The translations under genes were made by a program, and so were the position numbers. From an uncultured bacterium (lineage in GTDB: Bacteria; Arandabacterota; Arandabacteria; Arandabacterales; Arandabacteraceae), in NCBI GenBank assembly GCA_964598025.1, contig CAZRAU010000006.1, positions 3,600-67,599 on the forward strand: a stretch of DNA of 64,000 nt, read 5' to 3'. Positions 35,613 through 46,257 of the stretch are shown piece by piece. The notes below the pieces were generated by a model, which was not told where the DNA came from, ran no database searches, and saw nothing but the letters and a program-made list of their open reading frames with translations. Numbering within the stretch: the first letter of the stretch is position 1; each line of letters starts with the position of its first letter.

Positions 35613-35784
35613 TCACCGCGTCTGCCCTTGCATTCACAGCAAATCGGCGTTTCTCGACTGCCTGATTGCCTGCTTTCTTGCGTACACCCATGTCCCGGTC
35701 TGAAACCGGCTATTGCGTTGGGGCCGAAATCAGATAGACTTAAGAAACAACTGTCTGGTCAGGGCCGAATATCCGGAGGTGTGT

Positions 35785-36684
35785 TTGAAGGGAGAACTCT
35801 GCAGGACCGTAACCGCCGATGGACTGGAGCTTCAGGGATTCCTTGCTTTGCCTGACGGCGATGCTCCCGAGGCCGGGGTGCTTCACATACATGGTCTCGC
35901 GGGCAATTTCTATGAGAACCGTTTCATAGACAATGTCGCCCGTACGATTGCGAATTCGGGGCTTGGCTTTCTCACGGTTAATACCCGCGGTCGGGATTAC
36001 CTATCCGACTTCATCTGTGAGAAGCCGGACGGCACGAAGGAATACAGGCAGATAGGTGGGATCCACGAGATCTTCGAGGAGTGTGTCGAAGACATAGGTG
36101 CGTGGATCGCCTACCTCCGGTCAAGGGGAATGCGGAGTATCATCCTTCAGGGGCACAGTCACGGGGCGCTCAAGGTGACCTACCACCTTTACAGCAAAGC
36201 CGACCCCGGCGTGGCCGGCCTTGTGCTTCTGTCTCCCTCAGATGATTTCGGGTGCCAGCGATCCAGGCTCGGTGACAAGTTCGCCGAAGCTATCGGTGTG
36301 GCGCGCGCCATGGTCGCGGAGGGTCGGGGCAGCGACCTAATGCCCGCTCGGTACTTCCATTACCCCGTCTCCGCCTGCACCTATCTCGACATTTTCGATG
36401 ATGGCTCCAGGCTCGGGATATTCAATCTGTCGCGGACGGACAGCCGGGACTTCCCGGAGCTCCGGGCGATTCGGGTGCCGGTACTTGCGATTGTAGGCTC
36501 GGTGGACGAGGCCTTCCTGGGGACACCGGAGAAGTATCTATCGCTCATAGAAGCTGAGCTTGGGGCAGCTCCGGATTTTGTGGGGGAGATCATACAGGGA
36601 GCGCCTCACAACTACCTGGATTTTGAGGACGAGGTCGCCCGGCACATAGGTAAGTGGCTACGCTCCGGCGTGGTGACATTCTGA
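35785..36684 (+). CDS. Alpha/beta hydrolase (DUF1749-like)
   Basis: HIHGLAGNF, GHSHG nucleophile elbow, LLSP, GSVDE, GAPH; GGAGG RBS + TTG 35785. Confidence 0.85.
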   Translation: MKGELCRTVTADGLELQGFLALPDGDAPEAGVLHIHGLAGNFYENRFIDNVARTIANSGLGFLTVNTRGRDYLSDFICEKPDGTKEYRQIGGIHEIFEECVEDIGAWIAYLRSRGMRSIILQGHSHGALKVTYHLYSKADPGVAGLVLLSPSDDFGCQRSRLGDKFAEAIGVARAMVAEGRGSDLMPARYFHYPVSACTYLDIFDDGSRLGIFNLSRTDSRDFPELRAIRVPVLAIVGSVDEAFLGTPEKYLSLIEAELGAAPDFVGEIIQGAPHNYLDFEDEVARHIGKWLRSGVVTF

Positions 36685-36779
36685 TCAGTCGGGCAGCTCA
36701 GACTGACAGGAGTGCCGCCTGCGATGGGGCGGGCACAGATGGCATGCACCGGCTAACCGGTTAGGAGGACACCGATCTG

Positions 36780-37592
36780 ATGAGCGAGATCTATGACATT
36801 CTTCGGGATCAGGCTCTTAAGAAGACGAGGGACTTCAAGGACGACGATTTCCTGATAAGGGGTCTTTGGAAGATCGACCTGGCATTTCGGCCGAATGTGC
36901 ACGAAAGGACATTCCGCTATGCGTTCCTGGTGAGCCAAACCGTCGGCCAGGGGTCTTGTTACTGTGACACGGAGCTCGTGATCGACGATACCCTTATCGG
37001 GAAAGACGCACGGGAAGTCATCGAGGAGAGAGACTGTTACAGTATCTCCGTGCTCGATTCGCTCTATGCCTCAATACCCAAGAAACCGTTTCGTGTGCAC
37101 GAGATACGAGGCAATTCGATTCAGAAGACCGCCCTCCGGAACGAAATCCTCATGAGTGAAGTCGAAGCGGTCCTGGGATCGGTGAGGGCTGAGAATCCCC
37201 GAATCCTCAATGTGGGCGTTCTCGGCAACCTGATCAAGGGACTGGCGGACAAAGGTTATTCGGTGGTGGCCACCGATCTGGAGGAAGGGATCATAGGCAC
37301 TTCGGTTCATGGCACCAGTATCGAACACGGATCCAGGACCTACCACCACATCGCCGATTCGGATGTGGCGGTAATCACCGGGATGACCCTTACGACGGAT
37401 GCCATGGGAGATATCATCGAGACTTGCAAGACCCATGGGACCAAGATAGTGATCTTCGCGGAGACCGGCGCCAATTTCGGGGAGGAATACTGCACCACAC
37501 TGGGCGTCGATTCGGTGGTGTCGGAGCTCTTCCCCTTCTATATCTTCCAGGGCGTGAGCACGATTGAGGTCCACAGGAAGGGTGTGGCATGA
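36780..37592 (+). CDS. DUF364-like Rossmann-fold protein
   Basis: GQGSCY, VLDSLY, NVGVLG, AVITGMTLTTD, FAETGAN, ELFPFY. Confidence 0.7.
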   Translation: MSEIYDILRDQALKKTRDFKDDDFLIRGLWKIDLAFRPNVHERTFRYAFLVSQTVGQGSCYCDTELVIDDTLIGKDAREVIEERDCYSISVLDSLYASIPKKPFRVHEIRGNSIQKTALRNEILMSEVEAVLGSVRAENPRILNVGVLGNLIKGLADKGYSVVATDLEEGIIGTSVHGTSIEHGSRTYHHIADSDVAVITGMTLTTDAMGDIIETCKTHGTKIVIFAETGANFGEEYCTTLGVDSVVSELFPFYIFQGVSTIEVHRKGVA

Positions 37593-38851
37593 TTGAGAAG
37601 TATTTCATCAAGAACAACACGTTCTGCGCCGATGGGGTCGGGATCGATGAGGTTGTGTCAACCTGCGGCACACCCTGTTATCTCTATGCTGCAAGCGTAA
37701 TCGATGAGAAGTATAAGAGAATCACATCCGGTTTCCCTGGGTTCGACATATTCTACTCCTTCAAGGCCAATCCGAATGTTGCAATCGCCCGAAGATTGCG
37801 CTCACTGGGGGCCTGCGCCGACATAAGTTCCATGGGTGAGCTCGAGGCCGCTATCGAGGCGGGTTTTGAGCCCGGGGATATTGCCTTTGTGGGACCGGGC
37901 AAGACCGAGCGGGAAATCGACGCGGCAATCCGGACAGGGGTGTATGCCGTAGCTGCTGAGTCGGCACAGGAGCTGGCTCTGATCGAAACCGTATCACGCA
38001 GGCTATCCGTGCCGGTGGATGTCTTGCTCAGGATCAACACACTGGAAAAGCCGTCCTCGCCCGAGATGATGGTTGGGGGCCCGAGCAAATTTGGGTTCGA
38101 TGAGGAGTCGGTGGTCCAAGCGGTGCGAGGAGTGAAACTCGACGGCGCCCGGCTTGTCGGCATCCACGTTTATTCCGCGAGCCAGGTCTTGGATTCAGGC
38201 TTCATCTCGAAGCACCTTGATTACGTTGCCGGCCTGGCCCTGAGCCTTTCAAACGAACTGGACTTCGAGCTCCGTTGCATCGACTTCGGAGGAGGCTTCG
38301 GTGTTCCGTACGAGAATGACCAGTCCGATCTGGATCTCGTACCCATATCACTGGTCGCTGCAGGCGTGAGACGGAGGCTGGCGGAACAAGCGCCGGGTTG
38401 CCGGCTTATTCTCGAGGTGGGACGGTATCTGCTTGCCGAGTCCGGCGTCTTCGTTACCAGGGCGCTTCGGATCAAGGAATCCAGGGGGACATGCTTCATC
38501 ATAACCGATGGAGGCATGAACCACTTCAGCAGACCGGTCTTCATGCGCGTGAAGCACGCTGCCCGGATTCTGAACAAGCTTGCGCTTAGAAGTGACACCA
38601 GGTGCAGCGTCGCAGGTCCCATCTGCACGCCGATCGATGTAATGGCGACCGATGTGCTGCTGCCCCGTCCCGAGGCCGGTGATGTGGTGGGGATCTTCCA
38701 TGCCGGAGCCTACGGATATACGATGAGTATGATGGACTTCATGAGCCTGGGTGCACCCGCCGAGGTCCTGGCCGATGCCGGCCGGCTCCGCCTGATACGC
38801 AAGCCCAAGCCGCCGGCCCATGCCCTGGACGGCCAGATCTTTCCCGGATAG
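37589..38851 (+). CDS. PLP-dependent group IV decarboxylase (LysA/BtrK-like)
   Basis: YSFKANP (PLP Lys), GPGKT, SKFG, DFGGGFG, LEVGRYL, GPICTPID, GAYG; ATGA overlap with the upstream gene. Confidence 0.88.
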   Translation: MIEKYFIKNNTFCADGVGIDEVVSTCGTPCYLYAASVIDEKYKRITSGFPGFDIFYSFKANPNVAIARRLRSLGACADISSMGELEAAIEAGFEPGDIAFVGPGKTEREIDAAIRTGVYAVAAESAQELALIETVSRRLSVPVDVLLRINTLEKPSSPEMMVGGPSKFGFDEESVVQAVRGVKLDGARLVGIHVYSASQVLDSGFISKHLDYVAGLALSLSNELDFELRCIDFGGGFGVPYENDQSDLDLVPISLVAAGVRRRLAEQAPGCRLILEVGRYLLAESGVFVTRALRIKESRGTCFIITDGGMNHFSRPVFMRVKHAARILNKLALRSDTRCSVAGPICTPIDVMATDVLLPRPEAGDVVGIFHAGAYGYTMSMMDFMSLGAPAEVLADAGRLRLIRKPKPPAHALDGQIFPG

Positions 38852-42610: not shown

Positions 42611-44041
42611 CTATGGGAGTTCTCCAAGGAGTCGGCGGAGGATTGCAGCCTGGGTCTCGGGGCCCGTGTCGTCCGTGACTAGTCTCGCGTCACAGGTGCT
42701 GAAGGTGTCGGCGAGTGACCGGTAGCATGTGACCAGTACGGATACTCGTGATGCTTCTATCATCCGGCGGATGGCCTCCATGGAGTGCTCTAGCCTGAGC
42801 GGTTCCATAAGCCAGAGGATGAGCAACTTGCCCGCTGCTTCCTCCTCGGTGCCGATCTCCTTTATGTGCTTCGGGTGCCGTCGGGTCTGCTCAAGCAAGC
42901 CCGGATCGGTTGTGACACATGTCAACTCGCCATCCCTGAGCGGAAGCATGCCACAAGGATCCTCCACATGGACGGATGCAGTCATCACCCGTTCTCGCAA
43001 TTCAAGGTAGTGTCCACGGGAGATGCCTTCCATGGGCCGCCGGCCGGATGAGATTCTCTCAAGCAAAGCCTGTCGCCTCGAGACAGATTCCATGAGCCGG
43101 GCCCGGTCAAGCCTTCCGGATACGGCATCGGCCGTCATTGCCTCAAACGCTTCTTCGAATCTAATCGAGTTCTCGGTGTATAACAGGCTATCCACTCCGG
43201 CATCCAATGCCGCCCTTGAACTCTCGGCTGGACTGCTGTTCCGGGTCACGGCATCCATGTCGAGCGAGTCGGTAATGACCAAGCCGTCAAAGCCGAGAGC
43301 GCCCCTCAAGAGGTTTCTGATAACCTGCCCCGAGAGCGACGCCGGGAGGCGCCTAGCCTCAAGGGCATCATAGTGGCAGTGGCTTATCATGATGCCGTCC
43401 ACCCCGGCCCGGACGGCCGACACGAAGGGAGGGACATGGATGGATTCCAGGATCTCTCGCGACGTACTCACCACAGGCATATCAAGGTGGGAGTCAACCG
43501 TGGTCATGCCGTGCCCGGGGAAGTGCTTGGCAACGCATCCGGTATACTGCCTCGATGCCTCTATGAACGCCTTGCCATAATGCTCGACGGCGTCCCGCTC
43601 GCTTCCGAATGCGCGGCACCCGATGATTGGATTCACAGGCTCGGTGTTGACATCCATGCAGGGAGCAAGGTTGATGTCGATACCGAGGTCGGCCAGGGCT
43701 TCCGACATATGCCGGTAAAACGTCCGGGCCTCAGGCGGTTCCAGATGTCTTGATACCGCGGCGGCGCTCGGAGCCGACGGGAAGAAGCCCGAGATCTGGG
43801 TGACTCTTCCTCCCTCCTCATCCATCATTAGGATCGGTTGGACGCGATGTTGTCTTATTTTGCTCTTGGCGTCTTTGATCTGCTGTATTGAATCCTCAAA
43901 CGACGCCTTCAAGGCATCCTTGAAGACGATATAGTTGCCGACAGGAAAGCGGTCGAGGTCGAGATCACCCAAGTCCCGCGGCAGTCTCATGGTGAAGATC
44001 CGGCCGAGGAGAAGCCTGGCGTCTTTTTCGTTAAGTCCCAC
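42611..44041 (-). CDS. nagZ: GH3 beta-N-acetylhexosaminidase
   Basis: DEEGGRV, LAPCMDV, IGCRAFG, KHFPGHG, DSH, ITDSLDM. Confidence 0.88.
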   Translation of the reverse strand: MGLNEKDARLLLGRIFTMRLPRDLGDLDLDRFPVGNYIVFKDALKASFEDSIQQIKDAKSKIRQHRVQPILMMDEEGGRVTQISGFFPSAPSAAAVSRHLEPPEARTFYRHMSEALADLGIDINLAPCMDVNTEPVNPIIGCRAFGSERDAVEHYGKAFIEASRQYTGCVAKHFPGHGMTTVDSHLDMPVVSTSREILESIHVPPFVSAVRAGVDGIMISHCHYDALEARRLPASLSGQVIRNLLRGALGFDGLVITDSLDMDAVTRNSSPAESSRAALDAGVDSLLYTENSIRFEEAFEAMTADAVSGRLDRARLMESVSRRQALLERISSGRRPMEGISRGHYLELRERVMTASVHVEDPCGMLPLRDGELTCVTTDPGLLEQTRRHPKHIKEIGTEEEAAGKLLILWLMEPLRLEHSMEAIRRMIEASRVSVLVTCYRSLADTFSTCDARLVTDDTGPETQAAILRRLLGELP

Positions 44042-44050
44042 CGTTATCTC

Positions 44051-46180
<2,130 letters not shown>

Positions 46181-46257
46181 GTGCTCCACCTCGGTTATAC
46201 TACATACGAAGGTAGATGGTTGCTCGGCGTTTCCATCTGTTTCGGGCAAGAGCTTAA

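Follow-up and report, generated by a model that had tools for sequence, protein, structure and literature searches.

A 64,000-nt stretch of DNA from an uncultured bacterium (contig positions 3,600-67,599 of an assembly that is 95.7% complete; hereafter, the window) carries at 35785-38851 three open reading frames (ORFs) on the same strand, which encode a hydrolase, a DUF364-like protein and a pyridoxal phosphate (PLP)-dependent decarboxylase. We show here that the DUF364-like enzyme and the decarboxylase are obligate partners in many phyla, encoded side by side or as a fusion. We further propose, tentatively and as something quite possible rather than likely, that the three genes constitute one functional cassette for a small-molecule amine, in which the DUF364-like enzyme would make a gamma-substituted 2-aminobutyrate adduct, probably from S-adenosylmethionine (SAM), and in which the decarboxylase would not catalyze the last step of lysine synthesis. 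The relatives of the window genome are referred to below by their lineage name, Eisenbacteria (Candidatus Eisenbacteria). The features of the cassette are the following.

35785-36684, + strand: cytoplasmic alpha/beta serine hydrolase of the DUF1749 type, 299 aa (Pfam DUF1749 and Hydrolase_4).
36780-37592, + strand: DUF364-superfamily enzyme, 270 aa, with enolase-N-like and Rossmann-like domains (Pfam, structure model, hhalign).
37589-38851, + strand: group IV (alanine-racemase fold) PLP decarboxylase of the BtrK/TIGR03099 "CTP" clade, 420 aa (NCBIfam, motifs, tree).
37589-37592, + strand: ATGA start/stop overlap coupling the DUF364-like gene to the decarboxylase gene (read in the sequence).

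Beyond the window genome, the DUF364-like gene is present in 15 of 15 genomes of its order, and the hydrolase, the DUF364-like gene and the decarboxylase stand in the same order in 12 of the 12 loci fetched from the family. A scan of species-representative genomes, with an alignment of 16 sequences as the query, returned 49 loci from Eisenbacteria, Zixibacteria, WOR-3, Planctomycetota, Armatimonadota, Thermotogae, Chloroflexota, Clostridia, Halanaerobiales, Victivallales, and a Bathyarchaeon, to which four metagenomic loci were added (53 in total). A decarboxylase adjoins the DUF364-like gene in 49 of these 53 loci from more than 10 phyla; the other four comprise one at a contig end and three with room for a decarboxylase. 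The commonest third member is the DUF1749 hydrolase, which adjoins the pair in 33 of the 53 loci, and the trio keeps its order in Zixibacteria, WOR-3, Planctomycetota, Armatimonadota, and Thermotogae. Since this order is shared by all 12 family-level relatives and by several other phyla, the arrangement is far beyond chance.

The pair also occurs as a natural fusion. A single protein of 944 aa (P0082) combines a GNAT-like region, a DUF364-like domain, and the decarboxylase, with an AMP-binding ligase encoded downstream of it, and at another locus a DAO-decarboxylase fusion lies beside a DUF364-like gene, together with a GNAT gene. The remaining partners, which are genes for tailoring or export, vary among loci and include an AMP-binding ligase with an MFS exporter, a methyltransferase with the DUF1749 hydrolase, a KamA-type radical SAM enzyme with an EamA exporter, and GNAT proteins; an AMP-binding gene directly follows the pair in only a few distant loci. 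An initial annotation of this DNA had pointed to the ATGA coupling of the decarboxylase to a DUF364-type protein and had named unconserved neighbors, together with complementation of lysA, as the outcome that would speak against a small-molecule pathway. The overlap is indeed there, the pairing behind it is deeply conserved, and the survey of neighborhoods found the neighbors conserved.

Clustering of the ORFs around the loci revealed no further recurrent neighbors outside Eisenbacteria, where the additional synteny is lineage local. The link that the initial annotation had drawn to an upstream four-gene membrane complex does not hold up, as the complex lies beside the cassette in Eisenbacteria only and is absent from the loci of Zixibacteria, WOR-3, Armatimonadota, Planctomycetota, and Thermotogae. 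In the window, a GH3 glycosidase gene and a gene for a heavy-metal P-type ATPase with an HMA domain (42611-46249, - strand) are syntenic with ilvE and the cassette across Eisenbacteria, and not beyond. A link of the cassette to ilvE, the GH3 gene, or the P-type ATPase gene was rejected, since these genes are neighbors in the Eisenbacteria loci only.

Two loci, one from Bathyarchaeia (L052) and one from Phycisphaerae (L054), have a GNAT gene of 271 to 273 aa upstream of the DUF364-like gene, a DUF1749 hydrolase gene on the opposite strand downstream, and no decarboxylase, so the links to the hydrolase and to GNAT are independent of the decarboxylase. On a metagenome contig (L022:8001-12188), a distant DUF364-like gene (31% identity) lies behind a gene for a TrmB-type regulator and is followed by genes for an atypical alanine-racemase-fold decarboxylase, a KamA-family aminomutase-like radical SAM enzyme, and an EamA exporter; in this locus the gene pair is the basis of another small pathway.

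The DUF364-like protein matches Pfam DUF364 (PF04016) weakly, with 25.3 bits against a cut-off of 23, and belongs to a family of proteins of about 270 residues for which an exhaustive search returned 292 representative clusters. An alignment of 54 sequences was needed for the AlphaFold model, which reached a pLDDT of 96.6 (33.5 from the single sequence). VIA-align superposed the model on the two DUF364 proteins with solved structures, 3NPG (Z of 20.4, root mean square deviation of 3.0 over 220 residues) and 3L5O (Z of 19.4), with residues 1-267 covered, and the structural matches that come next drop to a Z of 9. Comparison by hhalign with a Streptomyces DUF364 protein gave a probability of 99.5% and common motifs, and the nearest clusters found with a language model are actinobacterial DUF364 proteins. 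Judged by its model, the middle protein is a genuine two-domain DUF364 enzyme. A second, more canonical DUF364 gene occurs elsewhere in the same genome (contig C1:7662-7988, 63 bits to PF04016, ORF of 243 aa).

Residues G58, D93, K116, R120, G146, and D166, a TGM segment, E249, P252, and Y254 are invariant or nearly invariant in the family. The hallmarks of adenosyl binding are a glycine after the first strand of the Rossmann fold and an acidic residue after the second, as in Gly129 and Glu148 of Dhaf4260 (Miller et al. 2010). The invariant G146 and the nearly invariant D166 appear, from their position in the model, to lie at the places expected for the glycine loop and the ribose-binding acid. 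Orf5, the sole characterized DUF364 enzyme, converts 4''-methyl-SAM to methylazetidinecarboxylate and MTA by an SN2 reaction at C-gamma of the methionine part of SAM (PMC12930334).

The decarboxylase scores 138.6 bits to Orn_Arg_deC_N and 61.5 bits to Orn_DAP_Arg_deC in Pfam. Its top NCBIfam match is TIGR03099, the exosortase A-associated family (308.1 bits, below the cut-off of 478.45), and its score to the lysA model TIGR01048 is 287.8 bits (287.3 in the genome search), below the cut-off of 297.9. BtrK, the L-glutamyl-[BtrI carrier protein] decarboxylase of butirosin biosynthesis (7RU7 and 2J66), is its best solved relative with 232 bits, and the best LysA structure, 2P3E, gives 198 bits. 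We aligned 47 decarboxylases that adjoin DUF364-like genes with 13 canonical LysAs and 4 carrier-protein-linked enzymes from plasmids; the LysAs were taken mostly from genomes with a DUF364-like gene of their own, supplemented by those of E. coli and of one unrelated genome. The cassette enzymes follow the consensus G[IV][HQ]xY[STA][AG]SQ, RPxx[MVI], and GPxCTPxD, and the LysAs follow HxHIGSQ, RPxxY, and CE[ST]GD, with the H, E, R, and Y present in all 13. The carrier-linked enzymes share the aromatic residue and the CTP with the cassette enzymes, but they carry a loop insertion without the RP.

The translation of the window gene contains GIHVYSASQ and AGPICTPIDV, so the reading HVYSASQ and GPICTPID in place of the LysA pattern, made in the initial annotation, is correct. 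At the LysA positions, the window enzyme has YSASQ, CTPID, and RPVFM; the histidine is thus replaced by tyrosine, the glutamate by threonine, and the tyrosine by methionine, and the arginine of RP is kept. Both traits of BtrK and TIGR03099, an aromatic residue in place of the LysA histidine and the GPxCTPxD motif, are present. In LysA structures, the arginine and the tyrosine of RPxxY bind the distal carboxylate of diaminopimelate (DAP), and the glutamate binds the distal ammonium. On that reading, since the arginine is retained and the glutamate replaced, the cassette enzymes would keep the distal-carboxylate site and not the site for a free distal amine.

In a quick maximum-likelihood tree (IQ-TREE, LG+G4, unrooted), the 13 LysAs form one group with 97% SH-aLRT support, and a branch with 99% SH-aLRT support parts them from 46 cassette enzymes and the 4 carrier-linked enzymes; the decarboxylase of the L022 contig is an outlier on a long branch. 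BtrK was compared by the pairwise alignment of the structure search and, like MccE, the siderophore decarboxylases, and Orf5, is not among the sequences of the tree. Motifs and tree together place the window decarboxylase in a BtrK/TIGR03099-like clade, and by these sequence criteria it is not a LysA. The view of the initial annotation, BtrK-like rather than LysA-like, is thus borne out by the motifs, the best solved relative, and the tree.

With LysA, the window enzyme has in common the fold, the PLP lysine, an EPGR-type arginine, and the RP arginine, but the DAP-binding His, Glu, and Tyr are replaced by Tyr, Thr, and Met, its clade is separate, and in other phyla the cassette enzyme co-occurs with a true LysA. 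With BtrK, whose motifs read GIHVYTGTQ and AGPLCTPED, it shares the tyrosine that stands for the stacking histidine of LysA and the GPxCTPxD that stands for GPxCE[ST]GD, but it keeps the RP arginine that BtrK lacks. It shares the CTP motif and the same side of the tree with TIGR03099 proteins and the peptidyl-carrier-protein (PCP)-linked "type III PLP-dependent enzymes"; unlike it, these adjoin phosphopantetheine-binding proteins and adenylating enzymes and carry the loop insertion without RP.

The hydrolase matches Pfam DUF1749 with 33 bits (cut-off of 24) and also Hydrolase_4. Its longest ORF spans 35713-36684; because a GGAGG lies 5 nt before an alternative TTG start at 35785 and the orthologues begin to align at about residue 25 of the longest ORF, we took the gene as 35785-36684. 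An AGGAGGA lies upstream of the start of the next gene, the DUF364-like gene, at 36780. The HxHG...NFYEN motif, the GHSxG motif (GHSHG, with Ser149), and the C-terminal His299 are at least 95% identical across 31 orthologues, and because they are kept, the protein is predicted to be an active serine hydrolase with a specific pocket. A sequence search of known structures returned no solved relative of the hydrolase, and a literature search on DUF1749 yielded nothing useful.

Our working hypothesis for the cassette is as follows. The DUF364-like enzyme would bind an adenosyl cofactor, most likely SAM, and transfer its 3-amino-3-carboxypropyl part to a nucleophile, probably an amine carrying a distal carboxylate. 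The PLP decarboxylase would then strip the alpha-carboxylate and leave a 3-aminopropyl group, and the serine hydrolase would remove a protecting acyl group or free the product. With an amino acid as acceptor, the N-(3-amino-3-carboxypropyl) adduct would be an aza-analogue of 2-aminopimelate, and this would agree with an enzyme that keeps the arginine and has lost the glutamate. Known members of the clade use gamma-substituted L-2-aminobutyrate skeletons, a gamma-glutamyl thioester for BtrK and a 3-amino-3-carboxypropyl phosphoramidate for MccE (PMC7857480, PMC10491745). We propose the transfer from SAM followed by decarboxylation because these substrates are gamma-substituted and because Orf5 performs C-gamma SN2 chemistry on SAM. 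The amine, polyamine, or metallophore pathway suggested in the initial annotation is a reasonable but unproven idea.

Three known systems offer a similar logic. In the microcin C pathway, MccD and MccE carry out a 3-amino-3-carboxypropyl transfer from SAM and then a decarboxylation by an enzyme of the alanine-racemase fold (PMC10491745; PMC7857480). The sequence of steps is the one that we propose, with MccE likened to the cassette enzyme by description, but MccD is class I methyltransferase-like and not a DUF364 protein, and no peptide-nucleotide genes are present here. The microcin C system includes a GNAT domain in MccE and the MccF hydrolase. It thereby resembles the cassette in the association of GNAT and hydrolase functions, and the recurrent GNAT and hydrolase partners could, speculatively, fit a scheme of protection and deprotection. 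Orf5, the cis-4-methylazetidinecarboxylate synthase of the bonnevillamide cluster, belongs to the same DUF364 superfamily (again likened by description); unlike the cassette enzyme, it pairs with a radical SAM C-methyltransferase, and its azetidine product could not be the substrate of a PLP decarboxylase. The CANSDH/CANSDC and carboxyaminopropylagmatine routes likewise combine a condensing Rossmann enzyme, a decarboxylase, and, in the agmatine route, a hydrolase, but the proteins are not homologous, and the hydrolase of the cassette is a serine alpha/beta hydrolase and not a ureohydrolase.

Neither AdoMetDC nor CANSDC was found in the window genome (for CANSDC, no match to TIGR01047 at E <= 0.001). 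Spermine_synth domain matches number five (contigs C78, C52, C22, C7, and C3), all inside very large ORFs of 691 to 1104 aa. An aminopropyl-forming role of the cassette would thus not be redundant in this genome.

Several points weigh against this hypothesis. The use of SAM would be an extrapolation from one distant member of the family, the Rossmann-like domain could equally bind NAD(P), and what the hydrolase does in this scheme is guesswork. The cassette is not a simple replacement for SpeD and SpeE, since one Thermotogae genome carries it alongside both. The closest cultured relatives of the decarboxylase adjoin carrier proteins and adenylating enzymes, which hints at thioester-bound substrates, and the window has neither of these partners. 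Finally, the phylum yielded neither another lysine-forming decarboxylase nor a LysX match above the cut-off.

The main alternative keeps the same type of intermediate but takes the donor to be something other than SAM: an NAD(P)H-dependent DUF364-like enzyme would join an amine to aspartate semialdehyde or to a keto acid, after which the decarboxylase would trim the adduct, in the manner of CANSDH/CANSDC or of opine and SbnB-like enzymes. The nearest structural neighbors of the Rossmann-like domain include the NAD-binding TrkA/KTN proteins (Z of 9.4) and dipicolinate synthase A (Z of 9.1), but precorrin methyltransferases are equally close (Z of 8), and the classical GxGxxG motif is absent. 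In staphyloferrin B clusters, the NAD-dependent SbnB is encoded next to SbnA. On plasmid p1 of Streptomyces angustmyceticus (L092; NZ_CP104318.1, 47811-64245), genes for an ATP-grasp ligase, a DUF364 protein, an SbnA-like PLP enzyme, a dipeptide epimerase, an MFS exporter, and a methyltransferase lie together. The DUF364 gene between the ligase and the SbnA-like enzyme thus occupies the usual place of SbnB, and the DAO-decarboxylase fusion beside one member of the DUF364-like family points the same way. Against this, the one characterized DUF364 enzyme depends on a SAM derivative, not on a nicotinamide cofactor, and we consider a nicotinamide-dependent condensation possible but unlikely.

Somewhat less probable still, in our judgment, is BtrK-like chemistry on a tethered substrate, in which a carrier, or the DUF364-like protein itself, would hold an aminoacyl group, for example gamma-glutamyl, during its decarboxylation, with the hydrolase as the releasing thioesterase or esterase. 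The hydrolase would be the natural releasing enzyme in such a scheme, and BtrK as the best solved relative, the grouping of the cassette decarboxylases with the PCP-linked ones in the tree, and the AMP-binding ligase directly downstream in some distant loci are all in keeping with it. However, the partners of BtrK are a carrier protein and an ATP-grasp ligase. The window enzyme is paired instead with a DUF364 protein, and neither BtrK partner is nearby: the ORFs that were scanned from 27.8 to 46.2 kb of the window include no carrier protein and no loading enzyme of the adenylating or ATP-grasp kind, in agreement with the initial annotation, which had seen no acyl carrier protein or ligase in the vicinity. 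Neither is a carrier protein or a loading enzyme recurrent in the 33 trio loci. Moreover, the cassette enzymes keep the LysA-type RP arginine and are without the loop insertion of the carrier-linked group, and a carrier role is not known for DUF364 proteins.

A last alternative returns the decarboxylase to lysine synthesis, either as the divergent LysA of the phylum or as an N-acyl-DAP decarboxylase whose product the hydrolase would deacylate to lysine, with the neighbors as lysine helpers or unrelated genes. The cassette decarboxylase is the best LysA-like gene in its genome, searches of 16 genomes of the phylum returned no canonical LysA, and dapF, dapA, and dapB are clustered on contig C81:2875-5359 of the window genome. 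The alpha-aminoadipate route to lysine was ruled out, as none of these 16 genomes has a match above the cut-off to LysX, the marker of that pathway. The orthologues score from 289 to 343 bits to TIGR01048, overall within 10 to 25 bits of its cut-off; several lie just above it, and databases label them LysA; the arginine for the DAP carboxylate is retained. The second LysA-like gene of the genome, on contig C119, was ruled out as the real LysA by its ornithine decarboxylase-type motifs (FHVGSQ and GPTCDSFD). Directly before it lies a gene of 422 aa that by eye, without a family scan, is deoxyhypusine-synthase-like (C119:243-2661, L002); the two may be a putrescine/homospermidine pair, and they are the only recognizable polyamine genes that we noticed.

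The distribution of LysA itself speaks against this alternative. Canonical LysAs (340 to 486 bits) occur together with the cassette decarboxylase in Armatimonadota, Thermotogae, Victivallales, several Clostridia, and one WOR-3 genome, that is, in genomes of at least five phyla. Conversely, a LysA-like gene of any kind is absent from the two Eisenbacteria genomes (96% complete) that lack the cassette, and in an even sample of 61 WOR-3 genomes, 10 have a canonical LysA, 3 the cassette, 1 both, and 49 neither, so that LysA is also missing from 49 of the 58 cassette-less genomes. The co-existence of LysA with the cassette in some genomes and the lack of both in others indicate that these lineages have often lost LysA, independently of the cassette. 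The Eisenbacteria and WOR-3 lineages probably produce DAP solely for the cell wall and take up lysine from outside; they may be lysine auxotrophs in which DAP serves peptidoglycan alone. With the His, Glu, and Tyr of LysA all replaced, a position outside the LysA clade, and an obligate coupling or fusion to a DUF364 enzyme that has no place in lysine synthesis, a role of the cassette decarboxylase as a lysine-forming enzyme is improbable.

In contrast to the enzyme families, which are known, the conserved pairing and the cassette are not described in the literature searched, and no link between DUF364 and a decarboxylase was found in the searchable literature that mentions DUF364. Public records label the orthologues "diaminopimelate decarboxylase," "alanine racemase," or "hypothetical protein." The misannotation is systematic, as hundreds of metagenomic "diaminopimelate decarboxylase" proteins belong to the DUF364-coupled clade, and lysine prototrophy inferred from these genes for Eisenbacteria, Zixibacteria, and WOR-3 is therefore probably wrong. 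The DUF364 family, with its one characterized member, gains a second and much wider genomic context together with a two-enzyme hypothesis. Returning to the SAM-dependent scheme that we favor, a broader and, for the moment, doubtful extension of it is that the DUF364-like and BtrK-like pair represents an unrecognized aminopropylation, independent of SpeD/SpeE and of CANSDH/CANSDC, in which the transfer comes first and the decarboxylation after. The pair would then serve as a housekeeping polyamine-like route in Eisenbacteria, Zixibacteria, and part of WOR-3, and the DUF364 family in general would consist of 3-amino-3-carboxypropyl transferases. If the proposed chemistry is true, the cassette would be a new enzymatic solution for aminopropylation or amine biosynthesis in several uncultured phyla.

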